DNA of 63,668 nucleotides, counting the filler, from Reclinomonas americana ATCC 50394 (lineage: Eukaryota): the NCBI GenBank assembly GCA_048213135.1. It is 16 parts of 16 records of this genome, joined end to end, with 100 filler letters (N's around TTAATTAATTAA, not from the genome) between each part and the next. Parts side by side here need not be neighbours in the genome. Positions count along the whole stretch, not along the records: positions 1 to 6,255 come from AFZH01021632.1; positions 6,356 to 9,303 come from AFZH01021633.1; positions 9,404 to 13,026 come from AFZH01021634.1; positions 13,127 to 18,141 come from AFZH01021635.1; positions 18,242 to 21,018 come from AFZH01021636.1; positions 21,119 to 23,422 come from AFZH01021638.1; positions 23,523 to 26,037 come from AFZH01021639.1; positions 26,138 to 27,330 come from AFZH01021640.1; 8 more parts are not named here. One strand, given 5' to 3'. The notes under the pieces were generated by a model. It made no database searches. It was not told where the DNA came from and was given only the letters and a program-made list of their open reading frames with translations. This document shows positions 976-62,965 of this stretch, piece by piece. The stretch's first letter is position 1; every line of letters begins with the position of its first letter. The translations under genes were made by a program, and so were the position numbers.

Positions 976-2345
976 TTACGCCGCTGCTGGTGCGGGAGCA
1001 GCGACACCGGCCAGGTTGAATGCTGGTGCTGCGGGAGCGGCGGCTGCGGGGCGGGGTCGGCGGTCAAAGAGGTTCTGGATGAAGCCGGGGGTGGGGAGGA
1101 AGGTGGTCTCGTGCGATTTGCAGAGGTACAGCGGCCACACGTCGCGCAGCACGTAGTAAATGTGGCCGCAAAAGATGCCCAGCAGGTCAATGGTGGGCGA
1201 GCCGCCGAGCATTACGGAGAATCCCATGAGAACCCACGGCAGCCACGGCGCGCGGAACTGGAACCAGAAGAGCTGTACATGCTGGAACGAGTGCCGCCGG
1301 CTCCACACGTAGACCACCATAAAGACGAGTGAGAAGCTGAGGAAGGGGACGCCGAGGAGGGTGCCGAGGCCCTGTGGCGGTGACAAAGGGGAAGGGTGGT
1401 GGTGAGGAGGGGGAGAGGGGGGAGGGGGGAGAGGGGGGAGGGAGGCGACAGGGAAGAGGGGGGAGGGAGGAAACGGGGAAGAGGGGGAGGGAGAGGTGAC
1501 GAGTGACAAGTAGCAGCGCGAATGGATGGGAGAAGAGCGAGTGAGTGGAGAAGAGCGACAGGCAAGGAGAAGAGCAGAGTGAGAAACAGGAGCGGAAGTA
1601 GAGAGAAAAAAAGAGCGAGTGAGAAGGAAAGGAGCAGCAGCGAGACGGAAGGAGCAGAGTGCGAAGGATAAGAGCAGCAGCGAGAGGGAACGGGGCAACA
1701 AAATGGAAGGGAAGCAGCTGGAGAGAGGAGCAGCGAGAGGCAAGGAGCAGCAGTAAGACGGAAGGAGAGGGAAGGAGCAGGGCGAGATGCAAGGAGAGGA
1801 GCAGCGAGAGACAGGAGAGGAGCTGCGAGAGGAACAGGAGAAGATGCGAGAGACATGAAGCAGAGCGGGAGAGGAACAGGAGCAGGGTGAGAGGGAAGGA
1901 GCAGGGCGAGAGACAAGGAGCAGCAGTGAGAGAAAAGGAGCAGAGTGAGAGACAAGGAGCAGAGCAAGGTGGACAAAGCAGCAGCGAGAGGAAAGGAGAA
2001 AGGCAGCAAGTCTCCCTGTGCATCAATCGCACACCACTCACCAACAACAGCGCAGCGCCAAACATAATCATGACTGCACAAGAACACGTCAGCAACACTG
2101 CGCCATTCAAACGACGCAATGGGAGAGACGAACGCAACAAACAAAGTCTCCAGTCTTGCCATCAAACTGGTTGCGCTCCAACGAGCTCCAGTACAATGTC
2201 AGGAAGTGCATGTGGAAGAACCAGTTGAGGCTGCGCGGAGACAGAGAAAGCAGGAAGAGGTGAGACAACTCTCCAAAGCGGAATCAGAGAGAGTGAGCCT
2301 GCAAACTGTGTTTGATCCCCATTGCCCAAGCTCTATACACACACA

Positions 2346-2381
<36 letters not shown>

Positions 2382-3216
2382 CTCTTTTCTCTCTCTTGTC
2401 GTTGAACGGAATTAGAGTGAGCCTGCAAACTGTTTGATCCCATTGCCCAAGCTCTTCTCTTCTCTCTCACAAACATACACTGCCTCTCTCTCTCTCTCTC
2501 TCTCTCCGTGCGACTGTGTGCATCTTTCTCACAATATGTCCACAACAATCACGCGAATCTCATCGCAACTCAATCCTTCTCTTTCCCCCTCTTTCCCCTT
2601 CTCTCTCTCTCTCTATCTCTCCCTCCTTGCGCCTCTCTCTCCACACCCGCGCCACGTCACATCCCAACTGTCGCGACTTGTCCGCACTTCCTCTCCCACA
2701 CCACATCGCAGCTCACCTGAACGTGTCAAAGTACCAGAAAGTCGTCACTGAGAGAGCACACGCACACAGAGAGCACAGAGCAGAGCAGAGCACAGAGAGT
2801 GACACGTGTGAGTGCACAAAGTCCACGTGGCCATCAGACAACACACACTTGCCCACACGCACCTAGTCTCCACCACTGCGTGTGCGCACATTGCAAACAG
2901 AGAGACACACGCACACGCAGAGAGCAAGAGAGAGTGAGTGACAGTGTGAGAGTTGAGCAAAGAAAAGCGTGATCACCGACCTCATTTTTGGCAACGACAG
3001 CTGCCGGATTGAAGTACAGCGAGTAAGGAGAGGCCAAGTCAAGTGAGACCACTGCCGTGGTCAACCCCGCTGTGTGTTCACAAGAGAGAGAGAGAGTGAT
3101 CGACAAGTCAGACGGGCCATCTCACGCCAAGGCACCATACACCACACGCGCAAAGTCGCACCTAATAGCAGGTATGTGCGTGTGACTGTGGGAATCGACT
3201 CGAAGAAGCGATTCAT
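976..3216 (-). CDS. Derlin (Der1-like ERAD rhomboid pseudoprotease), 7 exons
   Basis: Manual splicing gives MNRFFESIPTVTRTYLLL-AGLTTAVVSLDLASPYSLYFNP..NE-WWRL-VTTFWYFDTFS-LNWFFHMHFLTLYWSSLERNQFDGKTGDFV-FMIMFG..-..VYVWSRR..FRAPWLPWVL..LGIFCGHIYY. This has the derlin WR motif, YVWSR and GxxxGH. All introns are GT-AG and the stop is TAA. Confidence 0.93.
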
Positions 3217-3916
3217 TGTGTGTATGTGCGCGTCGGCTTTGCAACAGAACAGTTCAGCGAGTCATTTGTCCACTGTAGACGCTGTCTACCGCATCCAAAA
3301 CATCAACACAAACACCAATCTTGAGGCAGCAGCTGGTTCCTTGTGTGTGTGTTCGCTCTCGGAGCTCCGAGCAAGTCGAGAACTGCGATTGTCACCGCAT
3401 AAGCGTGGTTGACCAGTGGATTTGACGCACTTGCATAGATGCATAGCATTTTCTGCGATCGTACACGGCACATCGAATTCGGGAAAAGGCCATAGCCAGG
3501 CAAGTAAAGCAACGCCGGGTATGGATCCGTGAAGCAAGCAAAGCAAAAGAAGTGGTGGCGTCGTAGTTGGTGGCGTGGTTGAAACAAAAGAGAGCTTGCC
3601 GCGTTGTTGGTGAGGCTCATGTCGGCGGTGGCTTGATCATGCAAAATGCGCTGTGTAGTTGTTGTGCATGCATATGTCGTAAACTGAAAAAAATCTCAAT
3701 CTGTGATGATCACCATCTTGAGAGAGCGATAAAAACGCGACAGCGCGCTACAGTTGGCGCAGTGCAAGCGCTCAGCAATTTTCTCCTTGCTAAGTCGCCA
3801 TTATGTAAACTCAAATGTTGGCGCCAAGATTGGCGTTATGACCGTTAGATTATATTCACTTTCCCGTGTGTGCGCGCGGTGCGAACGTGCCGCTCTGCAC
3901 CACCGCCACCGCGAAC

Positions 3917-6900
3917 ATGCGCACACGCGTCTCTGCAATGCGCACGCTCCTCAGCGTCGCGCTCCTCGTCATTCTCTCACTCGCCATCAATGCAAGTTGT
4001 GTGTGATGAACGCGCAGTGCATGATAATCATGCATAAGCGCACTCACAACCACCTCACCTTCAATCCGCCACAGACGCCCAAACAGTGACCACCGCCGTA
4101 GCCAGCAACATCACTGGCTCGACTGTCACTCTCAATGCGTGGATCAATCCCAACAATGCTGCGGGTGGCACTACAAACTCCTTTGAGTGGTCGCCCTACT
4201 CTGCCACTCTGGGTGTCTCCTCCTCCACTGTCTCCACCATTGTGGGCACGGCAGGTACCTCGGGAACAACAGATGGCGTTGGCGCAAGTGCATTGTTGAA
4301 CACACCAATGGTTTGTGCACGACAAGTGTCTCTGCTGCGCCTGTCGTGCACTTTCGCTGACATTATGAATGTGTGCTCTCTCAACAGGGACTGGTCTTTG
4401 ACGCCGCAGGCAACGTGTATGTGGGCGACTACGGGTTTGTCTCTTCTTCCATCTGTCGATTGTTAATTCATCTCACTCACTGCAAGCGCGCACACGATGA
4501 TGATTGCAGCAACTGTCTCCTTCGACGCATCACACCTGCAGCCACAGTGACAACTTTTGCGGGAAGCACGTGCGGCCTGACGAACGCGACAGGAGTGTCA
4601 GCAAAGTTCAAAAAGTGCGTCTTGCATCTCTCTCTTCTCTCTCTTCTCTCTCTTCTCTCTCTCCCTTTCCGCACTCACACACGCACACAGTGTTGCCGGC
4701 CTCGCCATCGATCAAACCACGGGAACGATGTATGTTGCCGATGTGAGTGTGTTCTTGCATGCATGATGTTCCATGCATTCTGCTGACTCTGTGCGTGCGT
4801 CTCTCTCACACAGTTGACGAACCACGCTGTGCGTGCGGTCACCGCAGCAGCCGTGGTCACCACACTGGCGGGAAATGGGGCGTCGGGGAGTGCCAATGCC
4901 TCCGGCGCAGCCGCCTCGTTCAATCAGCCGATGGGCATCGCAGTGGATGCCACGAACCAAGTGGTGTATGTGGGCGACTGGCTGAACAACACCGTTCGGC
5001 GAGTGACCTACGCTGGTGTGGTGACGACCTTCTGTGGCTCTACGGGCATGAGTGGCACCGCCGATGGTGCGTGTGCGGGAGCGGCGCGGTTCGGTGGTCC
5101 CAATGGCGTGCTGCTTGTCGGAACCACGCTGTATGTTGGTGAGTGCTGTGCGGAAGAGATGATGCCCTTCCTCCCATCCTCACCTGCGCCTTCTGCTTGG
5201 TTTTGCGTGAGTGCAGCCGACCGTGCGAACAACTCCATCCGAGCGATTGACACAGTGGCAATGACTGTGACGACGGTGGCGGGTTCAGCGAGCGGCGCAT
5301 CTGGATCCACGGATGCCACTGGTGAGTTCATCATGTTCACCCCCGATTGGATTGTTTGCATTTGCTCTTACCGATCAGCAGGAACGGCTGCTCGCTTCAA
5401 CACACCGATCGGACTGGCATACGACTCTGGAAACAACGTCATTTATGCCGCCGATGTTGCGTATCTTTTCTTCACTCTGAGACGTCTCGCTTCTTGATTC
5501 TCACTGCCTGAACCCCCCACGCAGTCAGTCAACAACACCGTGCGAAGCATTCGTGTGTCAGACTCGTCTGTGACAACGATTGGCGGTGCGGCGGGCGTGA
5601 GCGGATCAGCCAACGGCAGCGCGCTGACTGTGGCACGCTTCAACTCGCCTGTCCACCTCGCCTTCGATGCATCGACTGCATCGGTGCTCATTGCCGATTA
5701 CACCACGCATATCATCCGTCGACTCTCGCTGGCGTCGCAATCGGCGTCGGCCACACCCGCCACCGCCACTGGCTCCGCGGCCACCTCGATCACCGCCTCA
5801 CTGAGTGGATTGGTGACCAACTGGACGTACTACTATCGCGCCGTCGGCGTCACCTCCACACCCAGCACCGTCAATGGCGCCACCGTGCCGTTCACCACCA
5901 CCACCAATGTGGCTCCGACCGACATCACCTGCTCGTCAACAACGTATGTGTCGCCTTCGGTGGCGAATCAAGTCGTGTGTGCGCTGCAGACGACGGACGC
6001 GAACGCGGGTCAGTCGTTCACGTACTCGATTGTCGGAGGCGCCAATAGTGCGGTGTTCTCGATTAGCGGGCAGTCGCTGGTGATTGTGGCGGCTGGGCAG
6101 GCGGGCAGCTCGCTAGCGGTGACGATCCGGTCGACGGACAATGGAACGCCGCCGCTGTTCTTCGACAAGGCGTTCACCATCACCACAGGTGGGGCAAATG
6201 GGGGGTGAAGTGTGCTCTGGGTCTCTCACCTTCTCTTTTCTTTGTTTCTCCTTTTNNNNNNNNNNNNNNNNNNNNNNNNNNNNNNNNNNNNNNNNNNNNT
6301 TAATTAATTAANNNNNNNNNNNNNNNNNNNNNNNNNNNNNNNNNNNNNNNNNNNNGACGGTTTGTCTGATGAGAGTGCGCTTATTACCACGTAAGCCTGT
6401 CTCACACGCTTGCGTCGACGTGACAGAGCATTGCGTTTGACGCTTCGGGTATTGCATTCGTATGTGATATCTACAATCACACGATTCGGCGAGTGACAAG
6501 TGGAGGTGTGGTGTCGACGTTTCTGGGGACTGCGGGAGCGGCAGGTTTAGTTGATGGGATCGGCAATGCCGCGCGATTCAACTCACCCTTCGACTTGTCC
6601 TTTGACTTGACCACCGGATACCTGTACATCTCTGCCGTTGAGTAGCTAGTCGTCCACGAGAGAGTTGCTTCCAACCAGTGATCCATCTCTCACCGTCGGG
6701 CTCTGCAGAATGGTAATAATGCAATCCGTGTGAGCTCTCCTTCGGGATTTGTGTCAACGCTGGCTGGCAACGGGTCTTCCGGCTCTGCAAATGGCACCGG
6801 CTCGAGTGCGAGGTTTAATTCTTTACATGGCATTGCGGTTGATGCGGCCAACAAAGTGATGTATGTTGGTGATTGGGGAAACTCGGCTGTAAGAAAGGTG

Positions 6901-9900
6901 TGTGCGTTCTTTGACTGCACTGCACGCTCATCAAGTGCTTACGTGCCACTCTTCAGATCACGTATGACGGCGAGGTCACCACGTACTGCGGTACGATCGG
7001 ATCGTTGGGCACGGTTGATGGAGCGTGTGCATCAACGGCACGTATAAGTGGTCCATCTGGTGTTGCTTTGGATGCGACGGCCAATCGGCTGTATGTCGGT
7101 ATATATATGTGTGTGTATGCAATTATTGTAGCAAGAATTGTGCGCTCACACTATGGAAAATGCTTGTAGCTGATCGAAATCGCCACAACATCCGCGTAAT
7201 TGACATGCTGGCGATGACTGTGTCGACTCTGGCCGGCTCGCTCACCGGAACAGTTGGGTCGACAGACGCCACTGGCACCGCGGCTCGATTCGGCACCCCC
7301 ATTGGCATCCAGCTCGACCGAGCACGAGGCATTCTTTACGTTGCAGAAGTTGCGTTTGTGTCGGCCGTTTCTACATGTCGTTAGCTTGTTCACAAGGAAG
7401 TCTCCATAGACGGGCAATCACATGATTCGCCAAATCGTCATCAGTACTGGCATTGTCACAACCATCGCTGGAGCTGCAGGAATGTCCGGGTCGGCAGATG
7501 GAAGTCCACTCACGACTGCTCGGTTCTACTCTCCTGTGAGTGTTTCATCTTTCCTGCGCTGTGTGGAGACTGCTCTGACTTGAATGCCTGTCTTGGCATC
7601 TAGCACTATATAGCGTACCACGCTGCATCTTCTACCTTGTATATTGCAGGTCCGAGGTCTCACGGGAGCTTGTTCGACTATTGTGTCTCTTCGTTCTCAA
7701 TATTTCATTCACCAGAGTACAGCAACTACACCATTCGCCGGCTCACCATCGGCTCCACCACTGCCATCTCGGCCACCCCGGCCACCTCTGGTGTTGCCTC
7801 CAGCACCGCTCTCACCTTGTCGCTCACATCGCTCGCCGCCAACTGGACGTACTACTTCCGTGCCATCTCCACCTCCACCGTGCCCAGCACCCTCACCGGC
7901 TCCACCATGTCATTCACCACCTCCAACTCGACGCCGACCGATATTGCTTGCTCTGCCACCTATGTCGCTCCATCGACGGCCAACATGCCCGTGTGTACGA
8001 TGAGCACCACCGATGGTGATGGGAGCCAGTCGTACACTTACGCGATCACCGGCGGAGCGAACGCAGGCACGTTTTCAACTAGTGGCGCGCAGTTGCAGGT
8101 CACGTCGGCGGGACAGTCGGGAAGTCCGCTAGCCGTCTCGATCCGCTCGTTTGACAATGGCACTCCACCGATGTTTGTCGACAAGTCGTTCAGTGTGACG
8201 TCGGGTGAGTGGATGATTGAGACTGTTGTGTGTTTCTCGACGTGGTTGTTGATCTTGTCTTCCGGCAGTGAACAATGCACCGACGGCGGTGACACTGAGT
8301 GCGAGCTCGTACTTTCCACCCAGCACGGCGGGACTGGCGATCGGCACGATGAGCACGAGCGATGTGGACTCGCAGCAGTCGTTCACATACTCGGTGGTTG
8401 GTGGTGCGAGCAGCGCGTTGGTGACGATTGTTTCCGGCAACCAACTGCAGTTTGTGAATGCGGGAGTGACGGCATCGCTGGTGGTGATTGTGCGGACGAC
8501 CGACAATGGCAACCCCGCCATGTCGTTCGATCAGACCCTCAATATTGCTGGTTGCGTGCTACTCTGCTTTCGCGTTCTTCTGTGCGAGGATACTGATCTT
8601 GCTTTGCCCTCATTCATGCAGCACCCTCTGTGACGTCTCTGTCGGCCACCTTTGTGTCGGCTCTGGCTGGCCAGTTGATTACACTGACAGGAACCGCGCT
8701 GGTGAACACCTCGGCTGACACGTCGGCATATGTTTTGGGCACTCCGCTTTGTGCTGCCACGACACCGCCGACAGCCGTGGCCAGCACCAGCGTCAGCAGC
8801 ACATTCGGCAGCGCGACCAGCATCACGCTGACGATTGGGGCGGCGGGTGCAGCTGTGGGCACGTACGAACTGTGCACGCGATGGGCGCCAGCCAAGACAT
8901 ATCTGGCGGTGTCTGCGTTCGCCATTGGTGAGGAATGGGGGTAAGGGAGAGCACAGGGAGCATTCGGCTGTTGTTGTGCTTGTTTGTTTGTGTGTGGAGA
9001 TCTAGAGCTGTGCTTCATTTTCTTTCATGTTGTTCTTCTCTCTCTTTCTCTTTCTCTTGCTCTTTCTCTCTCCTCCCTCTCCCTCTCGGTGTATGTATGT
9101 TTGTGTGTATGCAAGCATGTGTGTGTATGCGTGTGTCAGCTGAACGAATGAGGTGTGCAGGGAGCGTTGGTCCGAGCGACATTCTGCTGTCGGGTGCGCA
9201 GACGTACTCGAGTGCGACGGTTCCGTTCACGGTGGGCACACTGAGTATGGTGGATCTCAACACGGGACAGACGCCGACATTCAGCATTGCGGGTGGCGTG
9301 CACNNNNNNNNNNNNNNNNNNNNNNNNNNNNNNNNNNNNNNNNNNNNTTAATTAATTAANNNNNNNNNNNNNNNNNNNNNNNNNNNNNNNNNNNNNNNNN
9401 NNNGCGGCTCTATTCAGCATCGTGGGTGGGACTCAGCTGACGATCTCGGTGGCTCCGCCACTGAGTCGGCGACTGCAAGTGTTTGTGCAAGTGAGCGACG
9501 GCGTACTGACGTACACCAAGCAGTTCACAATATTGTATGGTGCGTGGGGAGGGAGGAAGGGAGGAGTAAGGGATGAAGAGGACAAGAGAGAAATGGAAGC
9601 AACAGATCTGTATGCGAGTGTCGTCGCCCTCTCTTCCTTCTGCGAGGTGGCGCACGCAGAGTATGTGGTTGGTGCTGATGGTGACTGGATACTTGTGCAG
9701 CTTGGGGAACGGGTTGTGCAGCGGTGCAGAATGGAGTGGTGGCTCGTTGCGTTTCTTGTGGACTTCAGTGTGCTCCGTCGTTCGCCGTCTCACTCTCCAT
9801 CACACTGAGCAGCGGCGTTGGAAGTGTGCCTATTCGAAGCTGTGGATCGACCTGGTGGCACGATTCTCGCTGTGTTGCCCTCTGTTGCAAGCGAGGTCGG

Positions 9901-10476: not shown

Positions 10477-10577
10477 GGTGACCGTCTCGACAATGAAGTT
10501 TACATTGTTTGTAATTTTGGCGCCAGAAGATGTTTCAACAGTTTCTTTCAGTGCACTGTCTGTGTGTGCGTGCACAC

Positions 10578-13500
10578 ATGCCACGCTTCCCCACTACCTA
10601 CGCACGCACACGCAGCGATGTGAGGCGTGCACTGCTTTGCGTCGCGCTCGTCGTTCTCGTGCTCGTCCACTCACTTGCTCTCTCTGCGAGTTGCGTGAGG
10701 GCAATGTGGGCGCTTATGCGTGTATCTTACACCCCGCTGCGCGTCTCGTCCGACTCTCACTGGCGCACACGCACACGACACATCATTATGTGCGCGCCAC
10801 AGACGCCCAAACAGTGACCACCGCCGTCGCCACCAATGCCACTGGCTCGACTGTCACTCTCAATGCGTGGATCAATCCCAACAATGCTGCGGGTGGCACT
10901 ACAAACTCCTTTGAGTGGTCGCCCTACTCTGCCACTCTGGGTGTCTCCTCCTCCACTGTCTCCACCATTGTGGGCACGGCAGGTACCTCGGGAACAACAG
11001 ATGGCGTTGGCGCAAGTGCATTGTTGAACACGCCAATGGTTTGTGCACGACAAGTGTCTCTGCTGCGCCTGTCGTGCACTTCGCTGACATTATGAGTGTG
11101 CGTGCTCTCTCAACAGGGACTGGTCTTTGACGCCGCAGGCAACGTGTATGTGGGCGACTACGGGTTTGTCATGCATGCACTCTTCTTCCATCTGTCGATT
11201 CGTTGCATCTCTCTCACTCTCACTCACTGCAAGCGCGCACACGATGATGATGATAATTGCAGCAACTGCCGCATTCGACGCATCACGCCCGCAGCCACAG
11301 TGACAACTTTCGCGGGAAGCACGTGCGGCCTGACGAACGCAACAGGAGTGTCAGCAAAGTTCAACAAGTGCGTAGTTGCATTCTCTCTCTCTCTCTCTCT
11401 CTCTCCCCTCTCCTCTCCTCTCCTCTCCCCACTCACTCACGCACTCTCACAGTGTTGCAGGCCTCGCCATTGACCAAACCACTGGCACCATCTATGTTGC
11501 CGATGTGAGTGTGTGCTGACATGCATGATCGCAGCTCGATGCAGGCACACATTCTGACTCTGTGCGTGCGTCTCTCTCACACAGTTGACGAACCACGCTG
11601 TGCGTGCGGTCACCGTAGGAGCCGCAGTTACCACACTGGCAGGCAATGGGGCGTCGGGGAGTGCCAATGCCTCTGGTGCAGCCGCCTCGTTCAATCAGCC
11701 GATGGGCATCGCAGTGGATGCGACGAATCAAGTGGTGTATGTGGGCGACTGGCTCAACAACACCGTTCGGCGAGTGACGTACGCTGGTGCGGCGACGACC
11801 TTCTGTGGCACTGCGGGCATGAGTGGCACCGCCGATGGTGCGTGTGCGGGAACTGCGCGATTTGGTGGTCCCAATGGCGTGCTGCTTGTCGGAACCACGC
11901 TGTATGTTGGTGAGTGCTGTGCGGGAGAGATGATGCCCTTCCTGCCTTTCTAATCTGCGCCTTCTGCTTGGTTTTGCGTGGGTACAGCCGACCGTGTGAA
12001 CAACTCCATCCGAGCGATTGACACAGTGGCGATGACGGTGACGACGGTGGCGGGTTCAGCGAGCGGCGCATCTGGATCCACGGATGCCACTGGTGAGTTC
12101 ATCATGTTCACCCCCGATTGGATTGTTTGCGTGTGCTCTTACCGGTCACCAGGAACGGCCGCTCGCTTCAACACGCCGATCGGGCTGGCATACGACTCTG
12201 GAAACAACGTCATTTATGTCGCCGATGTTGCGTATCTTTTCTTCACTCTGAGACGTCTCGCTTCTTGATTCTCACTGCCTGAACCCCCCACGCAGTCAGT
12301 CAACAACACCGTGCGAAGCATTCGTGTGTCAGACTCGTCTGTGTCAACGATTGGCGGTGCGGCGGGCATGAGTGGATCGGCCGATGGCAGCGCGCTGACT
12401 GTGGCACGCTTCAACTCGCCTGTCCACCTCGCCTTCGATGCATCGACTGCATCGGTGCTCATTGCCGATTACGCCACGCATATCATCCGTCGACTCTCGC
12501 TGGCGTCGCAATCGGTGTCGGCCGCACCCGCCACCGCCACTGGCTCCGCGGCCACATCGATCACCGCCTCACTGAGTGGATTGGTGACCAACTGGACGTA
12601 CTACTATCGCGCCGTCGGCGTCACCTCCACACCCAGCACCGTCAATGGCGCCACCGTGTCGTTCACCACCACCACGAATGTGGCGCCGACCGACATGACG
12701 TGCTCGTCGACAACGTATGTGTCGCCTTCGGTGGCGAATCAAGTCGTGTGTGCGCTGCAGACGACGGACGCGAACGCGGGTCAGTCGTTCACGTACTCGA
12801 TTGTCGGAGGCGCCAATAGTGCGGTGTTCTCGATTAGCGGGCAGTCGCTGGTGATTGTGGCGGCTGGGCAGGCGGGCAGCTCGCTAGCGGTGACGATCCG
12901 GTCGACGGACAATGGAACGCCGCCGCTGTTCTTTGACAAGGCGTTCACCATCACCACAGGTGGGGCAAATGGGGGGTGAAGTGTGCTCTGGGTCTCTCAC
13001 CTTCTCTTTTCTTTGTTTCTCCTTTANNNNNNNNNNNNNNNNNNNNNNNNNNNNNNNNNNNNNNNNNNNNTTAATTAATTAANNNNNNNNNNNNNNNNNN
13101 NNNNNNNNNNNNNNNNNNNNNNNNNNCGTCCTCCTTTTGTCCTTCCTCATTCTCCTCTTTCTCCTCTTCTTGTTTCACCGTCACCTCTGTCGGCATGCTA
13201 TCCTACTGCCATCGCTGGTTGTTCACAGTTCTCCTCAACTCCCTTTGGTGTGTCACAGCCACCCAGTCGCTGGCCACGCTGGCGACAACGTCGTCGGCGA
13301 CACTGAATGCGGTGGTGGGCAACTCTGTGGCTGCATCGACAATGACCAACTCGTTTGAATGGGCACCGACGACGGCTGCGCTTGGTGTCACATCAACTGT
13401 GTCGACGTGGCTGGGCACGGCGGGCATGTACGGAACGACGGATGGCACTGGCACAGCTGCTCGATTCAGTTTCGCAACGGTTTGTCTGATGAGAGTGCGC

Positions 13501-14213
13501 TTATTACCACGTAAGCTTGTCTCACGCATTTGCGTCGATGTGGCAGAGCATTGCGTTTGACGCTTCGGGTATTGCATTCGTGTGCGATTTTTACAATCAC
13601 ACGATTCGGCGAGTGACGAGTGGAGGTGTGGTAACGACGTTTCTGGGGACTGCGGGAGCAGCAGGCCTGGTCGACGGGATTGGCGCTGTTGCACGTTTTA
13701 ACCAGCCCATCGACCTGTCGTTCGACCTGACCACCGGATACCTGTACATTGCTGATGTTCCGCCACTTCGTTGCACGCTAGTGAGGTTTCTCAGAAAGTG
13801 CAAGCTCACATCCACGCTTTCCAGGGCAATAACCATGCAATCCGCATGAGCACGCCTTCTGGATCTGTGTCCACGGTGGCTGGCAATGGGTCTTCCGGCT
13901 CTGCGAATGGCACCGGATCAAGTGCAAGGCTTTACTCGCCGCAAGGCATTGTAGTTGACTCGGTCAACAAAGTGATTTACGTTGGCGACATGAGCAACTC
14001 GGCTGTAAGAAAGGTGTTTGCGTTCTTTGACTACAGTGCTTCCTCATCAAGTGCTTACGTGTCGCTCTCCAGATCACGTACGGCGACGAGGTCACCACAT
14101 ACTGCGGTACGATCGGATCGTCGGACACGGTTGATGGAGCGTGCGCGACAACAGCGCGGTTTGGCGGACCAAATGGCATGGCTTTGGACACAACTGCTAG
14201 TCGGTTGTATGTT

Positions 14214-14260
<47 letters not shown>

Positions 14261-48941: not shown

Positions 48942-51018
48942 GCGTTGCAGCAGTCGCAAGTGGCGGCACTCGAATTCCTGCATCGCAAGCGACAACCGTC
49001 AGAGCCCACATCCACGCAGAAAGGCAGACGCATGCAGATACACACACACCGGCGTCAGCTGCAAGTTGGCGTCCGACAGAGCATGCTGGATCTGTCCAAT
49101 CTTTCTGCAGTCGCTTGCGCTTGCTCATGCGTGTACTGCTCCGGCAGCTTCGGGCACTGCGAACACTTGGAGGTGCGGAGGAGCGATGCCAGGCTGTTGC
49201 GCTGTGCGAACAGCTCCGAAAAATCCATGTCCGTGATCTTGTAGTCCTGCACCGCACACACTCTCTCTCAACACCACCACCGATCTTCCGTGTAGACAGC
49301 GCGACATCTCCGGCCACTCACCTTGACGGGATGGAATGCTGGCACACCCTCCTCACCGGCCTGCGCCCACATCTCCGCCAGTTCATTCGCCACACGCACA
49401 ATGTCTGCACGGCGCGGCTCAAAGTCCTCGCCCGACGCGTGCTTGATGCGCTGCTTAGTGATCGACACGATGCTGGCGAACGGCAGTGCCTCCAGCAATC
49501 CGCTCTCTTCCGGTGGTCGGATTTGCACCGTGGAATAGTGCGGCAGGCCGCACAGTGTCGGCTGCGGGAGTAGGGATGTCAGTGCACAGCCACTGGAAAA
49601 AACAAACAGTTTCTCAAGGCGCACCGCCAACAGGTCCACGGGCTGGTACGGCCGCAACCACACGGCGACAAACTTCTCCGGCGGCGCCGCCGATGACGAT
49701 GGCAAACTCATGCCGGTGGATGACAGAGAGATGCCGGCAGCACGTGCGACGCGCGAGTGAAGAATGCAGGCCAGCGTGAGGCCGCACTCCATCGAGCGCG
49801 CCACCACCACACGCCCCGGCGTCAACTGCTGCAGGGCGCTCTTGCCTCGCAGCGCCGTCGCACGCAACTGCTCGTCCATGTTCACAAATGGCTGTGACAC
49901 AAAAAAGGATGAGAACGGAGAGCAGCAGTGCAGCGGGAGACATCTTCAAGACTGCACGCAACAGCATGCAGCTCGTAGAAATTGTCAATGTCGGGCTCGC
50001 CAAAGATGCAGTCCACGTCGCTCATGGTGTGCAAAATCTCCTGTCCACGCCGCAAAATGTCTTGCGAGTCCTGAGCCAGGCGCTGCACGTGGAACTCGCC
50101 AAAACTGCGCTTGATCATGTCCTCGACACGGAAGTCCTCCACACGCAGCAAGTTGAGAATCATGTTGTATGTGAGGCGGAACTGACTCTCCAGCTTTTGC
50201 GCACGTCCAAGAATCATGCGCGTGATGGTGGCGGACTCTGGTACCTGTAAGCGCGGTGAGCTCCGTGCATGAAGGCAGCATGCCCTTTTGCACGAAAAAA
50301 GACAAACCTCTGTCCAGCAGCCGATGATGACCGTGCCGACTGTGTCGAGTCCATGACGACCGGCACGACCACTCACCTGAATGTACTCGCCCGCCTGCAG
50401 ATCGCGGTGCTGGCGACCGTCGTGTTTCCGCAGCGAGTTGAAGACGACAGTGCGCGTTGGCATGTTGACGCCCATGGCAAACGTCTCGGTGGCGTACAGC
50501 ACCTTGACGAGGCCGCGCGAGAACAAAATCTCCACAATCTCCTTCACGATCGGCAGCAGACCGGCGTGATGCACACCGAGGCCACGTCGCAGCAGGTCGC
50601 GCATGCGCACAATCTGCGGCAACTCGCGGTCCGGCGCACGCAAGCGACTCACACTCGTGTCGATAATGTGAGTGATTTCGCTCTTCTCCGCTCCCGTCGT
50701 CAAATTGATAGCGGTCAGCGAGTTCGCAATGGCCTCGCATCGCTTGCGCGAAAACGTGAAGACGACCACCGGCATCAGCTCCCGCTTCTGTAAGAAGTTG
50801 ACCATCTGAATCCACTCGTTGCTGCAGGAAACAAAATCACGCAGCGGTGAGCACTGTGTGCCAAGCACAGCACAACTGACAACTCTCCGCGTAGCAATCA
50901 CCGTTCAGTCTGCTCCTTGGCTGTGCCGTTGCCCAAGTGCGTCTTCCTCGCCCAGTGCCACATCCAGTGCTCGCAGCGCAGTGCTGCAGGCCTCACTGAT
51001 CACAGGCGACGCGTACAT
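48942..51018 (-). pseudogene. SKI2: SKI2 copy B: internal deletion of about 2.4 kb, frameshifts, 3'-truncated
   Basis: Exon 1 is joined out of frame to the [11 protein letters not shown] region at about 50935 (GTGCG microhomology). Motif VI is altered to QVSGRAGRHG. There are two 2-nt deletions near 49105-49130 and no DSHCT domain. Confidence 0.88.
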
Positions 51019-53391: not shown

Positions 53392-56300
53392 CTGTAACAG
53401 TCGCACGCGGCACTCGAATTCCTGCGCCACGAACGACAACGATCAGAGCCCACATCCACGCAGAAAGGCAGACGCATGCAGATACACACACACCGGCATC
53501 AGCTGCAAGTTGGCGTCCGACAGAGTATGCTGGATCTGTTCAATCCTTTGCTGCAGTCGCTTGCGCTTGCTCATGCCCGTGTACTGCTCCGGCAGCTTCG
53601 GGCACTGTGAACACTTGGAGGTGCGCAACAGCGATGCCAGGCTGTTGCGCTGCGTGAACAGCTCCGAAAAGTCCATGTCCGTGATCTTGTAGTCCTGCAG
53701 CGCACACACTCTCTCTCAACACCACTACCGATCTTCCGCGCAGACAGAGCGACATCCCCCGCCACTGACCTTGACGGGATGGAATGCCGGCACACCCTCC
53801 TCACCGGCCTGCGCCCACATCTCCGCCAGTTCATTCGCCACACGCACAATGTCTGCTCGGCGCGGCTCAAAGTCCTCGCCCGACGCGTGCTTGATGCGCT
53901 GCTTGGTGATCGACACGATGCTGGCGAACGGCAGTGCCTCCAGCAATCCGCTCTCTTCCGGTGTCGGATTTGCACCGTGGAATAGTGCGGCAGGCCGCAC
54001 AGTGTCGGCTGCGGGGGTAGGGATGTCAGAGCACAGCCACTGGAAAAAACAAACAGTATCAAGACGCACCGCCAATAGGTCCACGGGCTGGTACGGCCGC
54101 AGCCACACGGCGACAAACTTCTCCGGTGGCGCCGCCGACGATGACGGCAAACTCATGCCGGTGGACGACAGAGAAATGCCGGCAGCACGTGCGACGCGCG
54201 AGTGAAGGATGCAGGCCAGCGTGAGGCCGCACTCCATCGAGCGCGCCACCACCACACGCCCCGGCGTCAACTGCTGCAGGGCGCTCTTGCCACGCAGCGC
54301 CGTCGCACGCAACTGCTCGTCCATGTTCACAAATGGCTGTGACACAAAAAAGGATGAGAACGGAGAGCAGTGGTACGGGAGACATCTTGATCAATGGACG
54401 CAACAGCATGCAGCTCGTAGAAATTGTCAATGTCGGGCTCGCCAAAGATGCAGTCCACGTCGCTCATGGTGCGCAAAATCTCCTGTCCACGTCGCAAAAT
54501 GTCTTGCGAGTCCGGCGCCAGACGCTGCACGTGGAACTCGCCAAAACTGCGCTTGATCATGTCCTCGACACGGAAGTCCTCCACACGCAACAAGTTGAGA
54601 ATCATGTTGTACGTGAGGCGGAACTGGCTCTCCAGCTTTTGCGCACGTCCGAGGATCATGCGTGTAATGGTGGCGGACTCTGGTACCTGTAAGCGCGGTG
54701 AGCTCCGCGCTTGAAGGCAGCATGCCCTTTTGCACAAAAAAAGACAAACCTCTGTCCAGCAGCCGATGATGACCGTGCCGACTGTGTCGAGTCCACGACG
54801 ACCGGCACGACCACTCATCTGAATGTACTCGCCCGCCTGCAGATCGCGGTGCTGGCGACCGTCGTGTTTCCGCAGCGAGTTGAAGACGACAGTGCGCGTC
54901 GGCATGTTGACGCCCATGGCAAACGTCTCGGTGGCGTACAGCACCTTGACGAGGCCACGCGAGAACAAAATCTCCACAATCTCCTTCACGATCGGCAGCA
55001 GACCGGCGTGACGCACACCGAGGCCACGTCGCAGCAGGTCGCGCATGCGCACAATCTGCGGCAACTCGCGGTCCGGCGCACGCAAGCGACTCACACTCGT
55101 GTCGATAATGTGAGTGATTTCGCTCTTCTCCGCACCCGTCGTCAAATTGATGGCAGTCAGCGAGTTCGCAATGGCCTCACACCGCTTGCGCGAAAACGTG
55201 AAGACGACCACCGGCATCAGCTCCCGTTTCTGCAAGAAGTTGACCATCTGAATCCACTCGTTGCTGCAGGTAACAAAATCACGCAGCGGTAAGCACTGTG
55301 TGCCAAGCACAGCACAACAGACAACTCCCCGCGTAGAAGTCACCGTTCAGTCTGCTCCTTGGCTGCGCCGCTGCCGGTGCGCAGAGCCGACGACTTGGCC
55401 TCGCGGTCGTGGAAATACTTGCTGGCATCGCGGTAGCCCTGCAGTTGGAACGCGCCGGCGTGGTCGACGACCTTGAATGTTTGGCCCTTGACGTACAGGT
55501 AGTGTTCGAGAGGCACCGGTCGACGGTTGGTGCCCACCACGAAAATGTTCTTCTTTTTCGTGCGACCCACCCAGTCGGCAAACTGCAATGCAAGACGCAG
55601 AAACATGAGTCGCCATGCAAGGGGAGAAGGAGCGAAGAAGCTAGCCAGCGCACCTCAAATGCGTTGGGCACCGTGGCCGAGAGCATGACAATGTTGATGT
55701 GCGGCGGCAGCATGATAATGACCTCCTCCCACACGACGCCACGGTCCTGGTCGTTGACGTAGTGCACCTCGTCAAAGATGACCCACTCGACATCGCGCAC
55801 CATGTCAGCGCCGCGGTACAGCATGGAGCGCAAAATCTCGGTCGTCATGATGACACAGGCTCCCGTCGGGTTGATCTGCACGTCGCCCGTGAGAATGCCT
55901 GCACCGTTGTCGTCGTCGGCGAGGCGTTAGATGTATGGACTGAAGCGCTGCACATCATTGCAACCAAGGTACGCACCGACATCGCCAAAGCGGTTCTTAA
56001 AGTCGCGGAACTTTTGGTTCGACAGCGTCTTGATGGGCGACGTGTAAATGGCCTTGGTCATGTGCTTCTGCGACAGCGCAATGGCGTACTCGGCGACCAC
56101 CGTCTTGCCGGCCGATGTGTGCGCCGCCACAAACACCGACTCGCCGTTCTCCATGTGGTACACGGCCTCCTTCTGGAACCAATCGAGCTCGAACGGGAAC
56201 TCCATGGCCATGTTGGGCACCAGTGTGCGGAAGTGCGTCTGCGAGAGAGGGAGAAGGGGGGCGGTGAGGATGCAACGAAAAATGGGAGTCTTTCTCTGTT

Positions 56301-57893
56301 CTGCCTCACCATGTCCATGCGCTCCATGACGGCCCATGTCTTCCTCTCCGAGTCTTGCTTGCCGTCGCCCGACCCACCACCGGCGATCGCGGCAGCCTTC
56401 TCGCGCATCTCTTGCTGGCGCTTGAGACGCGCCAGATCCGACACCTCCGTCACCGCGAAGATGTCGTCGATGGACACGCCGGCCGAGGGCGCTTCCCTGA
56501 AATCCAACACCTCTGCATCCTCCGGCAGCAGGGGTGCGGCAGCTGAGGCGCCTCCCGCGCGGCGTGAACCCGAGGCAACCGACAGAGCACCGCTGGCCAC
56601 GGCACGCGGTTGACGCACGGGCAGAGTGCGGGCGTCGAGTTCGGGGTCGCGAGGTGCCACAAAGCCAGGATCACGGAGGCCCAGTTCGATGAGTTCTTGC
56701 TCCGCGCCGCTGGCAAAAATCTGTGAAGAAGCCCGTCAATGAGTCAACAGAGAAAGGGGACGTCAAACGGGAAGCACACGCACATCATCCAACGTGATTT
56801 GCACACTTTGCACTGCGCGGGTTGAAGGCACAGTTGAGCGCCCATACACCATTACTACACCCCTACATAAACAAGTATAGACACAACCTGGCGGCTCGAC
56901 AACATCCCCCCGCTTGCCAGGTGCCGGAACCGCGCCACTGCGAATGGCGTCGAGGTACTGGCGCAGCATGCTGGACTTGTTGGAACCGATAGACAACAAC
57001 TCGGTGGTCGCCGGTGCCGCCGACCGCGCACTCAAGTCGATTCCCTCGCTCCACCCATGCGGCGTACTCAGCAGCGACGCACCACCGCCATTCAACGCCT
57101 CGATGAACACACGCGCATCGGCGAGCTCCTGCTCCGTCGGCGGTGGCGGAGGCTCCTTGTCAATGCCGCCCGGCTGGAACGGTCGAATGCCGCTGCCGCC
57201 CGTCACAAACGAGTCCAGTGAGCTGTACGGCCGATGCAGCGACGACGCATCATCCTTGTCGATCTCCACCTGAGCCAGCTGCATGTTCAAAACAGAAGAA
57301 GAGGCAACGTTTTCGCGATGAGAGAGACAACACACCAGCTTGGGTCCACGCAGCTCGCCCGTGAGCTCGTTGCGGTCGACATCGATCTGCAGCAAGTGCG
57401 GCGTCGACTTGACCTTTAACAGTGTGTCGCTGTGCATGGGTAGTCAGCAGCAGCACAAGAGAGACAAGAGAGAGGCCAACTCAACAGCGCCAAATCGCGC
57501 GGAATGGCCGGCTGATAGCTGTTCCCCGCAGGAAACATCACCGGGCTCAACACATCACGCAAGTGCGCCGCCGGCAACACACTCTCACACAGTTGCGTGG
57601 TCAGGTCCTCACTCACAGCAAACTCAGGCTCATGCTGCGACCAAAACACAATCAACACAATGCACACACACACACAGCTCTGTGTGCAACCCACTCACCA
57701 GTCGCACAAGGTGCTTGTGCGTGTGCACTCGTCGTCGCGCACGCAGCTGCCCGCTCGCACCTCGTCCCCACTGCGCGATTTGCAGAGTGGGCAGACGACG
57801 TTGCGCGCCCTGTGCGTCTTCCTCGCCCAGTGCCACATCCAGTGCTCGCAGCGCAGTGCTGCAGGCCTCACTGATCACAGGCGACGCGTACAT
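53392..57893 (-). pseudogene. SKI2: SKI2 copy C: complete 5' part, 1-nt frameshift near 53962, GVHHAG changed to GVRHAG, 3'-truncated (no DSHCT)
   Basis: Colinear with copy A. It has ttccggtgtcgg where A has ttccggcggtcgg. Homology ends after [10 protein letters not shown], the same point as copy B. Confidence 0.85.
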
Positions 57894-58853: not shown

Positions 58854-59768
58854 CTATGCGGGTACTTCATCCATCATGCGCGTTATCCGCTGAACGATCT
58901 CGTGGAAGTCGGGTCGTCGGTCGGGTTGCGATGCAATGCAGTCGTGCACGAGACGCGGGAATGCCGGATGAATTGAGGCGCCGGCTCCCGGTGGCAACTC
59001 CAGCCGCACCTGTGAACACCGGCAGTGAGCAACAGCAATGGCCTCGCCACAACAGTGGAAGAGAAACGCAACATTCTGGCGGACCATGGCCACCAACAGC
59101 TGAATTGGCTCGTATGAATCGAACGGTCGCAGCTTGGTGGCCAGCTCCCACAACACTGATTGGTAACAAGGCATGAGAGGTGGCAAGCAAGGACGAGACA
59201 TAACAACACACACGAACGCACCGACGCCATACGAATATACGTCTGCTTTTTCTGAATATCTCCGACCACGCAGCACCTCGGGTGCCATCCATTGCGGCTG
59301 GCGCACACAGCTCTTGTGAGCAACATGTAGATGCACACACACGACACGAACACACTACAACACTCACCGTCCCGATCGATGATGTCATGGTGCTGGAGGC
59401 CTTGACTCGTGACAAACCAAAATCGGCAATCTTCACACTCCAGTCCTCGCCCAGCAGCAAGTTGCCGGACTTGAAATCGCGATGCAGGATGGGTGGATCA
59501 TGTGTGTGCAGGCAGAAGAGTCCCTTGGCGGCACCGAGGGCGATGCGCAGCGCCACACGCGGTGTGATCAGCGATGGTGTGCCGGTGCCCGGGTCGAGCA
59601 CGTCAAATAGCGAGCCTCTGCGTGACATATATGGGCGGTGAGGGGAAGACAAAAAAGAAAGCATGCTGACTGACTGCGCACCGTTTCATGTACTCAGTCA
59701 CCATGGCAGGATATCGCGATTCTTGGCACATGCCCATGATGAGGAGGATATTGGGGTGGCGGAGGGCC
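58854..59768 (-). CDS. TKL (Raf/CTR1-like) protein kinase, C-terminal part (subdomains IV-XI)
   Basis: [89 protein letters not shown]. Confidence 0.92.
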
Positions 59769-61137: not shown

Positions 61138-62203
61138 ATGTCACGATCGGCGGTGGTGATTGACTACGAGGAGCTGGCGAATCCCGACGCGGATCTGTCG
61201 GATCAGCTGGAGATGGCGGTGGGTCCGCACGGACTCGGTCTGGTGCTCATTCGCGGAGTGCCGACGTTCCCCGAGAAGCGCGCGCGTCTTCTCCCGCTGG
61301 CCTACAAGTTCGCCAATCTGCCCGAGAGCGTGCGTGCCAAGTACGAGAATGCAGAGTCGCGCTACAATGTCGGCTGGAGTCATGGCAAGGAGGCGGTGGA
61401 GAATGGGAAGCTTGGTGCGTTTTTTGCGTGTCGTCGACATTGAAGATGCGGAGATGCTCATCTGTCTTTTGTTTGTGTAAAAAGACTTTGGCAAGGGCTC
61501 GTACTACGCGAATCCGGTGACGGATGCGCCCACGGATGATCCCGAGCGCATCAAGGCCATGCCGGAGATCTTGGCGCCGAACATTTGGCCGCGCGACGAC
61601 ATGCCGGAGCTGGAGCCGGCGTTCAAGGACCTCTCGCGGCTCATTGTCGACACGGCGGTGCTGCTGGCCCGCCAGTGCGACAAGTACGGTGCGTGCGTTT
61701 TTTTTCTGCAAAGTTGCGCTCCTTGATTGCTGATCGACTGGTGTGGTGACAGTGCATCGCGTGCTGCCGTCGTACGGACCCGACAAGCTCGGTCGCATCA
61801 TCGGCACCTCGCAGGAGATGAAGGCGCGTCTGCTCTACTACTACCCACCCGGCGAAACCCCCATCGATGCCGACGATCCATCGAGCTGGTGCGGCTGGCA
61901 CCACGACCAGTTGCGTTTGCTCGTCTGCGCTTCTTTCCTTTCCTTGCCTCATTTCCCCGCTCACCCTTCTTCACCCACACACGCAGCGGCTCCATCACGG
62001 GCCTCTGCAGTGCCATGTTCTTCGACGGTGAGGGCAACCAGGTCCCGTGCCCCGATCCCAAGGCCGGCCTGTACGTCCGCAACCGCGCCGGTGAGACCAT
62101 CAAGGTCAGCATCCCGGTCGACCATCTGGCGTACCAGATTGGCGAGGCGGCCATGGTCCACACGGGCGGCCGCCTGATCGCCACACCACACTGCGTCAAG
62201 TCG
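61138..62203 (+). CDS. 2-oxoglutarate/Fe(II)-dependent oxygenase (IPNS-like family), 3' end lost in the gap
   Basis: GPHGLGLVLIRGVP, GWSHGKE, KGSYYANP, PNIWP, KARLLYYYP, WCGWHHDH|GSITGL (HxD), AGLYVRNR, AYQIGE, ATPHCV (distal His). Confidence 0.92.

Positions 62204-62307: not shown

Positions 62308-62392
<85 letters not shown>
62308..62392 (+). repeat. (CA)n microsatellite at a contig edge
   Basis: Direct reading of the sequence. Confidence 0.95.
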
Positions 62393-62393
<1 letters not shown>

Positions 62394-62479
62394 AAGGCTC
62401 GGGTGCAGAGAAGCTCTCCTTCCCTCACCCCCACTCTCCATCCCTCTCTCCCCTCTCCTCCCCCCTACACACACTCAAC

Positions 62480-62965
62480 TCTCCGTAATCGTGATCGCCG
62501 CATCCTGCTGGCCACCAACGCCCGCAAAGTTCGCCCGCACCGAGCACGTCAGAGTCCCAGAGGCCGCCGCCGTGTTATCAATGAGCACTGTTGCTGTTCC
62601 GTCGCCATTGTCGGTCAACTTGAGCGAGTTGTTCGGCGACACGTTCCTGATGGTGATGCTGTTGGGAAGAGGATGGTCGACATCGTCGTTGGTGAAGGTC
62701 ACCGTGCACATCACGTCGCCCGTGGTCAGCATACTCGCTGTTATGTGTGTGCGAGAGAGAGAGAGACAGAGAGTAAGACACGTGGGTGTGTGAGTGAGAG
62801 AGAGAGAGAGAGAGCAACACAACGTGGATTGTGTGTGGGTGACGCAGGTGCGACAGAGTTTGTGACTGTGGCCTCGGCTGCCATGACGACTGTGATGAGG
62901 AGCATGACCATGCTGGTCAACCACTGCTTTCCGTGTCGTCTTCTCATTGCGCGCCACTTTATCAT
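62480..62965 (-). CDS. Secreted protein N-terminus with a beta-sandwich (cadherin/Ig-like) domain; continues toward the gap
   Basis: Signal-like WLTSMVMLLITVVMAAEA; intron from 62823 (GTTGTGT) to about 62739; exon SMLTTGDVMCTVTFTNDD..LTDNGDGTATVLID..CSVRANF..AITIT. The start is uncertain. Confidence 0.55.

Follow-up and report, generated by a model that had tools for sequence, protein, structure and literature searches.

How can the same genes carry introns that begin with GTGCGT or GTGAGT and introns whose donor has one extra T after the GT? The question is raised by a 63,668-nucleotide (nt) stretch of DNA from Reclinomonas americana ATCC 50394 (GenBank assembly GCA_048213135.1), analysed at its full length and called the window here. 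A preliminary description of it had reported an abundant class of GTTGCGT, GTTGAGT and GTTGTGT 5′ splice sites beside ordinary donors and had proposed that U1 small nuclear RNA (snRNA) reads them in a register shifted by one base, routinely in this lineage, or that the lineage has variant U1/U6 snRNAs. On sequence inspection, all 25 coordinates listed there (20 primary, five paralogue) bear a GTT donor-like motif, with three small corrections: the G of GTTCCGT lies at 28715, not 28714; 30246 reads GTTGCGC and so has no GT at +6/+7; and 14482 reads GTTGGGT. Judging from the sequence, we hold it on balance probable that class members are true GT-AG introns of the U2 type and that their donors follow a second grammar of 5′ splice sites, discrete from the ordinary one and written GUUG(C/A)GU, which is read in a displaced register.

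Use of the GTTG[ACT]GT donors

Homology, repeat spacing, a motif-blind gene finder and paralogues all bear out that GTTG[ACT]GT sites serve as donors alongside ordinary ones in the same genes. At SKI2 junctions, every frame-consistent pairing of a GT or GC donor with an AG acceptor was scored against a profile of 60 full-length homologues, ignoring the donor motif. The GTTGCGT donor ranks first at the 43137 junction in 3/3 copies of the gene, and the GC donor 3 nt downstream lies ~5 bits below it. For derlin the profile came from 3 homologues only; over the GT/GC-AG combinations it too places GTTGCGT first, at 2138, with the GC alternative 3 nt downstream at 157.7 bits. When the introns at 5456, 6637 and 7349 of an NHL-repeat gene are excised with the heptamer's first G as their first base, each excision restores the D-x-x-N-x-x-[IV] spacing that characterizes the NHL family and is visible in the window's own repeats too. 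Successive NHL repeats hold introns at the same repeat position and in the same phase, at 4743 with GTGAGT and at 5456, 6637 and 7349 with GTTG(C/A)GT, and insertion or deletion of one T inside the intron could convert either grammar into the other with the exon untouched. A protein kinase read through its intron aligns with CTR1 (3ppz_A) in two pieces with exactly 21 surplus query residues, equivalent to 63 nt, at weak E-values (0.41); in the comparison with solved structures the read-through gave no match at E ≤ 0.01 and weak alignments at E ≤ 10.

Paralogous genes keep these donors, as had been claimed. Over nine paralogue pairs 60/63 heptamer positions are identical, all 3 changes falling at +5, while intron interiors in five diverged pairs are 53–79% identical. 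In the pairs 3996/10690 and 7349/14482, conservation halts at the heptamer and returns at the acceptor, with indels between. The junctions that the preliminary description had fixed by conserved motifs (gamma-glutamyl hydrolase or GGH, 2OG-oxygenase, derlin and TMEM260) are likewise consistent with class donors. The GGH-like junction is in phase 1 and reads VIGILT + Q + PTHPP...YLAASYVKYVESAGARVVPV, a motif read by eye at 22690 that we take to be the family's; other phase-compatible GTs would insert at least 14 residues. The 2OG-oxygenase junction, in phase 2, reads WHHD-H-GSITGL. TMEM260 exons are colinear with chain 9rql_A over three stretches (Table 1), and introns of 64 nt and 65 nt jointly restore the frame by arithmetic; the segment 27639–27902 had no TMEM260 match in the structure-sequence search.

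A gene finder whose donor rule was "GT" only, with an acceptor matrix trained on GTG[AC]GT introns, chose GTTG[ACT]GT sites in 11/56 cases, as against 100/8441 for all GT (16.6-fold, p = 6e-11). It chose one-base departures from the heptamer in 0/61 (GTTG[AC]G[ACG]) and 2/57 (GTTG[AC][ACT]T) cases. The extra base is T only, since sites with another inserted base (GT[ACG]G[AC]GT) were chosen 2/52 times. The same finder took just 5/169 GTG[AC]GT sites, many of which lie in GT/GC repeats. The preliminary description had proposed dropping the class if +6G/+7T were no commoner among GTT donors than in the GT/GC-repeat background; motif-blind choice found them enriched, with low controls, and so the class stands. 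Self-training of donor 5-mers from a flat start also converged on it, with TGCGT after GT as the top word (8/100 introns initially, 15/154 finally). Two other statistics proved too weak as discriminators: coding-potential asymmetry at motif occurrences (0.30 vs 0.20), which does not separate even ordinary donors, and a strict branch-plus-CAG module, present at 21/166 ordinary donors.

We defined an objective set as introns of the self-trained model that are 45–140 nt long, end in CAG or TAG and are flanked on both sides by exons of at least 40 nt with a positive coding score. As predicted, 14 of its 57 introns have GTTGNGT donors; three corrections from the SKI2 profile raise this to 16/57, or 11/38 without paralogue duplicates, with GTG[AC]GT donors at 13/57. 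SKI2 copy A, from profile junctions and an N-terminal gene model, has 3 GTTG[AC]GT donors in roughly 16 introns. The frequency can fairly be put at between a fifth and a quarter of introns. The motif as such is also common: GTTGCGT occurs 36 times on both strands (15 + 21), where ~8 would be expected of a random heptamer in 2 × 63.7 kb. Window-wide, 61/1460 GTT sites (4.2%) have G+4, G+6 and T+7, against 16/20 GTT donors of the objective set. Those 61 GTTGNGT occurrences include 22 curated donors and 7 further sites claimed in the preliminary description, and within modelled genes 40 occurrences are on the sense strand and 11 antisense.

Site by site, 16/20 primary sites listed earlier are supported or plausible and none was contradicted. 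Homology, repeat consensus or paralogue alignment backs 2138, 3996, 5456, 6637, 7349, 22690, 43137 and 61910; the objective set backs 8551, 27198, 27681, 27903, 46224 and 39966 (GTTTCGT); the self-trained model predicts 45619, outside that set; and 9746 is plausible from a closed PAN-exon frame. This leaves 20404, 30246, 62823 and 28715. Three members are additions to the earlier list, at 33379(−), 33908(−) and 59072(−).

Proposed register of the second donor grammar

Among 16 non-redundant members, T+3, G+4, G+6 and T+7 are invariant (16/16), and +5 holds C (13 members) or A (3). In the 17 ordinary donors (GT[AG]NG[TC]), +3 and +5 are G, +6 is T (13) or C (4), and +4 is mixed (A6, C6, G1, T4), so that the variable +5 of the class matches the variable +4 of ordinary donors. 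The preliminary description had also noted a loss of G at exon position −1, which is reproduced here: −1G is found at 4/16 class sites, 13/17 ordinary donors and 10/15 other donors (class vs ordinary, Fisher p = 0.005), against a background of 22% for all GT. Full-consensus GTG[AC]GT donors differ from the class in the same way (8/10 vs 4/16, p = 0.014). When the two grammars are aligned from the right, an exonic G followed by GTG(C/A)GT differs at one base from GTTG(C/A)GT beginning at the cut, and the G+1 of the class intron occupies the place of the ordinary exon −1G.

From the observed introns, their shared acceptors and these shift-like position statistics we infer a set of snRNA contacts. 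The heptamer would be the ordinary footprint, exon G plus GUG(C/A)GU, except that U replaces G as its second base, whereby the only GU would come to sit one base further upstream. U1 would lie on the same seven bases as at an ordinary donor, intron G+1 replacing exon −1G, in a register that can be described as "+1-shifted" and would amount to bulging out one U at +2/+3; cleavage by the catalytic spliceosome would then fall at the sole available GU. The U1 base opposite +1G at ordinary donors would be the one left unpaired, with the cut moving by one base. With one pair lost, the other positions would have to be near perfect, and the greater uniformity of the class relative to ordinary donors would follow from this. 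For a donor starting with GUU, the +1 shift and the one-U bulge at +2/+3 are indistinguishable except that a bulge leaves −1G useful, and with −1G at background the data favour, if slightly, the shift.

Apart from the donor, class introns look like their neighbours, and the comparison of length and acceptor between the two donor classes finds them alike. Median length is 68.5 nt for the class and 66 nt for ordinary introns, and 22/22 curated class members end in CAG or TAG. Removal of the introns leaves SKI2, derlin, the kinase and the NHL repeats colinear with homologues or repeats. Strict YTRAY occurs within the last 50 nt in 5/16 class, 10/17 ordinary and 2/15 other introns, and CTCAC, CTGAC and TTGAC motifs can be seen by eye upstream of the acceptor in both classes. 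U12-type introns carry the donor [AG]TATCCTT and the branch motif TCCTTAAC near the 3′ end; both are absent from the 16 intron sequences, and we reject that identity. We likewise reject introner-like mobile introns: an all-vs-all blastn of the 16 introns minus the heptamer gave, among the matches listed, only matches of 7–10 nt at E > 1.

Competing explanations and known systems

Several observations weigh against a displaced register or against the size of the class. Duplex energies were calculated by RNAduplex for the standard U1 5′ end, in the sequence given by Tan et al. 2016, which may not be this organism's U1, and their mean is −2.0 kcal/mol for the class as against −2.6 for random GT (1500 sites) and −7.1 for ordinary donors. 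Pairing with the U6 ACAGA box would need an extra looped-out base. The SKI2 margins of GTTGCGT over the next candidate are just 1.0–3.0 bits. Numbers are small, with 16 non-redundant sites of which three lie in internally repeated NHL exons of shared ancestry, and the objective set comes from a finder with self-learned donor 5-mers, which favours the class and possibly inflates its share. Nine sense-strand exonic GTTGNGT copies are apparently unused, so the heptamer alone is not sufficient. Finally, the loss of −1G could be partly attributable to general exon/intron compensation at 5′ splice sites, as described by Parker et al. 2022; compensation by itself does not explain the loss, since full-consensus ordinary donors keep −1G at 8/10.

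The energies divide the claim of a shifted register. With standard U1, GUUGCGU sites that lack G at −1 range from +0.5 to −2.9 kcal/mol, GUUGAGU sites are moderate (−2.7 to −6.7 kcal/mol) and other donors stand at −4.8 kcal/mol. The more stable duplex in a non-canonical register that is expected of shifted or bulged sites was not obtained with the standard U1 5′ end. What holds of the earlier proposal is a real and abundant class with the statistics of a displaced footprint; what is in doubt is its reading by standard U1, whose predicted pairing with the class is no better than with random GT, so that on energy grounds a standard U1 in a shifted register would fall short. We also made what-if calculations with hypothetical U1 variants. 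A U1 with G opposite the C (Mastigamoeba-like) gives −5.2 kcal/mol for the class and −8.7 for ordinary donors, ACGCAC gives −7.0 and −11.0, and a 5′ end able to pair with every base of the heptamer gives −10.6 and −8.2. Use of GUUGCGU would make sense with a second U1, or with one whose base facing the C is G; that C is so strongly preferred at +5 suggests such a G in this organism's U1. The preference fits both a single adapted U1 and a second U1, and −1G at background fits a single-U1 shifted reading better than a second U1. We put at about an even chance the fuller proposal that this lineage has made the one-base-shifted register a routine second grammar, in about a quarter of its introns, needing an adapted snRNA system. 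Its U1 could have a G facing the +4/+5 C, or there could be a second U1; in either case the U6/5′ splice-site helix would have to accommodate a looped-out U by the catalytic centre.

Three other explanations have to be weighed against a single adapted system. The genome might instead hold two snRNA sets, with a second U1, and perhaps a second U6, whose extra 5′ base makes it complementary to GUUGCGU, and thus two U1 particles feeding one U2-type spliceosome. The discreteness of the class, its greater uniformity, its failure to pair with standard U1 better than random GT and the −10.6 vs −8.2 kcal/mol obtained with a heptamer-complementary 5′ end would all suit this, as would the altered U1 pairing regions in Entamoeba and Mastigamoeba and the mixed U1 variants in Physarum described in 10.1101/2022.06.08.495308. 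An inserted-base U1, however, would keep its next C free for exon −1G, yet −1G is at background; A stands at +5 in 3/16 members, paralogues accept T or G there, and the window holds no snRNA gene (Rfam). We consider two snRNA sets unlikely, if clearly possible. Rather less probable, in our view, is the absence of any special register, where donor choice would depend little on U1 pairing and mostly on U6, U5, proteins or short-intron definition, with GUUGNGU as one tolerated donor kept by descent from duplicated exons. Homology does pick degenerate donors in SKI2 (GTGAGG, GTGCGC, GTGATT, GTCAGT, GTGTGT, GTTTGT), other donors are also weak with U1 (−4.8 kcal/mol), and three members lie in internally repeated NHL exons. 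This reading sits poorly, however, with one-base heptamer variants chosen 0/61 and 2/57 times, with the invariance of +3, +4, +6 and +7 over unrelated genes and diverged paralogue introns, and with class introns that share no sequence outside the heptamer (7–10 nt matches, E > 1, among the matches listed).

That the class is an artefact of in-silico splicing or assembly, with donors elsewhere, a homopolymer T error or segments that are not introns, we regard as very improbable. The assembly is fragmented, and four introns of the objective set (33908, 46224, 59072 and, with its variant GTTTCGT donor, 39966) keep the frame and hold no stop, whereas most members are needed for the frame or hold stops. 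A GC-AG intron after a GTT codon scores 5.0–5.5 bits lower by profile in SKI2 and derlin, is impossible for GTTGAGT, GTTGTGT and GTTGGGT (3/16 members have GA there), and would leave an extra residue that the NHL spacing excludes. Placing the donor at the heptamer's second GT suits neither frame nor acceptor at 5456. Homopolymer error is contradicted by heptamers that agree fully between paralogous contigs, which were assembled independently and have indels between their introns, and the long open frames kept in the exons speak against frequent errors of this kind.

The displaced register has precedents at a far lower frequency. Recognition of 5′ splice sites is thought to be anchored by the near-universal 5′ end of U1 and by a fixed distance from the cut site to the U6 ACAGA helix, and to our knowledge non-canonical registers are known only as rare mammalian exceptions. 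Both +1-shifted and one-nucleotide bulge registers of U1 in human were reportedly described by Roca and Krainer in 2009 and by Roca and colleagues in 2012. In human cells, U1 registers of the shifted and +2/+3-bulge kinds are proven (Tan et al. 2016, PMC4856993), with the bulge kind predicted at 68 (54 curated) of 201,541 sites and validated non-canonical registers together amounting to 1.5% of sites. The class resembles the human sites in having GU, an extra U and then the usual consensus, in being cut at the GU and in belonging to otherwise ordinary U2-type introns; unlike them it makes up 16/57 introns, and GUUGCGU is not predicted to pair with standard U1. Given this weak duplex, the human precedent alone does not explain the use of GUUGCGU here. 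The class is best filed as a very abundant form of a known rare mechanism.

Donors that depart from the universal consensus are also known from whole lineages, and a 2008 paper by Irimia and Roy reportedly bears on GYGCGY or +4C donors. The bioRxiv preprint 10.1101/2022.06.08.495308 gives GUUUGU(U) donors in Entamoeba (88–90% GUUUGU) with a co-evolved U1 ACAAAC, a U1 variant ACGUAC in Mastigamoeba, and mixed standard and modified U1 variants in Physarum. Mamiellales (GYGCGY) and Thecamonas have +4C donors with standard U1. The class is like Entamoeba and Mastigamoeba, where altered U1 is proven, in that U+3 or C+4 sets the donor off from the universal consensus, and the ordinary donors here, GTGCGT/GTGAGT with CTGAC-like branch motifs, are like those of Mamiellales and Thecamonas. 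Entamoeba, as described there, has one uniform grammar in an intron-poor genome, and all four groups have a single grammar per genome, whereas in the window two grammars of different length occur in the same intron-rich genes. We found no report of a GTTGCGT-type donor class in the open-access literature, including for Mamiellales and Thecamonas, and a search for the heptamer as a word returned only primers and unrelated matches among the matches listed.

Two minority intron classes offer further comparisons. GC-AG introns lose one U1 pair, offset by a stricter consensus elsewhere; the class shares with them a minority donor and a lost U1 pair, except that here the lost pair faces +1G and the cut site shifts by one base. 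U12-type introns provide a second uniform donor grammar, free of a −1G preference and scattered among ordinary introns, and are expanded in Physarum; unlike them, the class has 3′ halves that by eye look like those of ordinary introns. If the displaced register is right, one that is rare in human (~0.03% of sites) would be routine here beside ordinary donors in the same genes, and would amount to a natural experiment on cut-site choice independent of U1, bearing on the slack of the U6/5′ splice-site helix and on the co-evolution of snRNAs with splice-site grammar. Gene predictors with a single donor matrix would miss exons in such a genome; a finder limited to GTG[AC]GT skipped the exon ending at 5455.

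Intron coordinates, gene content and further observations

Table 1. Introns with GTTG-type donors, introns with other +3T donors and unused copies of the heptamer in the window
Feature	Coordinates	Strand	Evidence or remark
Derlin, GTTGCGT, 65 nt	2074..2138	−	Best of 61 combinations, 163.2 bits
NHL/TIG/PAN copy 1, after signal-peptide exon, GTTGTGT, 91 nt	3996..4086	+	Copy-2 alignment with 35-nt internal indel; motif-blind finder
NHL repeat, GTTGCGT, 69 nt	5456..5524	+	Repeat spacing; objective set
NHL repeat, GTTGAGT, 72 nt	6637..6708	+	In-frame TAG 2 codons inside intron; repeat spacing; motif-blind finder
NHL repeat, GTTGCGT, 61 nt, TAG acceptor	7349..7409	+	Repeat spacing; paralogue indels between heptamer and acceptor
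NHL/TIG/PAN copy 1, GTTGCGT, 71 nt	8551..8621	+	Objective set; needed for frame; no other in-frame GT within 30 nt
Before PAN-domain exon, GTTGCGT, 67 nt (plausible)	9746..9812	+	TGA 7 nt upstream of acceptor closes the PAN-exon frame and so fixes 3′ end and phase; weak upstream exon
Copy-2 counterpart of 3996, GTTGCGT, 125 nt	10690..10814	+	Paralogue alignment
Copy-2 counterpart of 5456, GTTGCGT, 69 nt	12227..12295	+	Objective set; paralogue
Copy-2 counterpart of 7349, GTTGGGT, 64 nt, AAG acceptor	14482..14545	+	Paralogue alignment
Copy-2 counterpart of 8551, GTTGCGT, 64 nt	15675..15738	+	Objective set; paralogue; interior 62% identical to copy 1, heptamer 7/7
Copy-2 counterpart of 9746, GTTGCGT, 67 nt (plausible)	16753..16819	+	PAN-exon frame; paralogue
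GGH-like first intron, GTTGCGT, 646 nt, CT-rich low complexity	22045..22690	−	Phase-1 junction
TMEM260-like, GTTGAGT, 65 nt	27198..27262	+	Upstream exon = 9rql_A 22–57 including GGDSGEL, E = 7e-5; objective set
TMEM260-like, GTTGCGT, 64 nt	27681..27744	+	Upstream exon = 9rql_A 251–276; objective set; no other in-frame GT within 30 nt
TMEM260-like, GTTGCGT, 65 nt	27903..27967	+	Downstream exon = 9rql_A from 351; objective set
Large gene without homologues, GTTGCGT, 73 nt	33307..33379	−	Objective set only
Same large gene, GTTGCGT, 84 nt, in frame	33825..33908	−	Objective set only; open frame without splicing
WD40 gene, variant GTTTCGT, 78 nt (plausible)	39889..39966	−	Spliced GHTSDVNRVRFS = usual WD40 GH-to-strand spacing; unspliced also open
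SKI2 copy A, GTTGCGT, 68 nt	43070..43137	−	Best of 14: 147.2 bits, next 144.3, GC 142.2
SKI2 copy A N-terminal, GTTGCGT, 75 nt	45545..45619	−	Self-trained model; GTTGTGT there in copy C
SKI2 copy A N-terminal, GTTGAGT, 63 nt	46162..46224	−	Objective set; no other in-frame GT within 30 nt; copy C length differs by 7 nt
SKI2 copy B counterpart of 43137, GTTGCGT, 71 nt	49892..49962	−	Best of 18: 152.8 vs 151.8 bits
SKI2 copy C counterpart of 43137, GTTGCGT, 68 nt	54337..54404	−	Best of 15: 153.8 vs 150.8 bits
SKI2 copy C counterpart of 45619, GTTGTGT, 75 nt	56813..56887	−	Self-trained model; paralogue
SKI2 copy C counterpart of 46224, GTTGAGT, 56 nt	57430..57485	−	Objective set; motif-blind finder; paralogue
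Protein kinase, GTTGCGT, 63 nt, in frame	59010..59072	−	CTR1 colinearity (weak, E 0.41); objective set
2OG-oxygenase-like, GTTGCGT, 77 nt	61910..61986	+	Phase-2 junction; DIOX_N on upstream exon; objective set
GTTTGT/GTTAGT donor intron	43420..43482	−	
GTTTGT/GTTAGT donor intron	41578..41643	−	
GTTTGT/GTTAGT donor intron	28842..28900	+	
GTTTGT/GTTAGT donor intron	13480..13546	+	
GTTTGT/GTTAGT donor intron	18831..18902	+	
Exonic sense-strand GTTGNGT copies	43046, 43324, 49868, 54313, 54591, 32681, 35739, 62479, 7253		Apparently unused

A second type of donor with T at +3, GTTTGT (also GTTAGT), keeps G+5 and T+6 in the ordinary register, and homology chose a GTTTGT donor in SKI2. These donors resemble that of Entamoeba, which in the bioRxiv account pairs well with the U6 ACAGA box. 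The ordinary donors of SKI2 copy A (41500–46400(−)) are highly degenerate by homology (GTGCGT, GTGCGC, GTGATT, GTGTGT, GTGAGG), and one SKI2 intron has GTCAGT in copy C (53769) and GTGAGT in copy B (49321). One exonic GTTGNGT copy lies just 24 nt past the acceptor at 43070; the exonic copies could be cryptic or alternative donors. Two introns are long, that of the GGH-like gene at 22045–22690(−) with 646 nt and one of derlin at 1373–2041(−) with ~670 nt, both made up almost wholly of low-complexity CT-rich and CACT-type repeats; the remaining curated introns measure 53–131 nt.

The window is eukaryotic nuclear DNA rich in short introns, with a G+C content of 52–62%. It is a string of contigs of ~1–8 kb each, joined by 15 linkers of 44 N + TTAATTAATTAA + 44 N (for example at 6256–6355, 18142–18241 and 46408–46507). 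From Pfam or solved-structure matches, it holds genes for derlin, a gamma-glutamyl hydrolase-like protein, TMEM260, WD40 proteins, protein kinases and a 2OG-oxygenase-like protein. The gene for a secreted NHL/TIG/PAN protein is present in two copies (4067–10481 and 10795–17478; DNA identity 78–94%), and SKI2 with an adjoining WD40 unit in three (42091–46407, 48915–50933 and 53392–57668; 94–97%), of which SKI2 copy B ends at the end of its contig. With DNA identities of 78–97% overall, the copies may be tandem duplicates or uncollapsed haplotypes. Three contigs begin at the identical point of the WD40 gene (47006, 51180 and 58099), as expected of assembler breaks at repeat borders. Rfam at gathering thresholds finds no RNA gene within the window. 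The region 30457–36707(−) contains very long open reading frames of 597 and 837 residues that match no Pfam family and have no relatives in the protein collection, and it appears to be a lineage-specific large gene, holding two of the GTTGCGT introns predicted by the gene finder.

A metagenome scan for relatives kept 80 loci, the best at 69% identity, and in the three richest in the heptamer the SKI2 gene is intronless (3/3). The nearest named proteins are at most 59% identical to the SKI2 exon. Public read assemblies contain P0127, a fragment of 175 residues with 92% identity to the helicase exon of SKI2, which shows that a close relative of this organism is present in public data.

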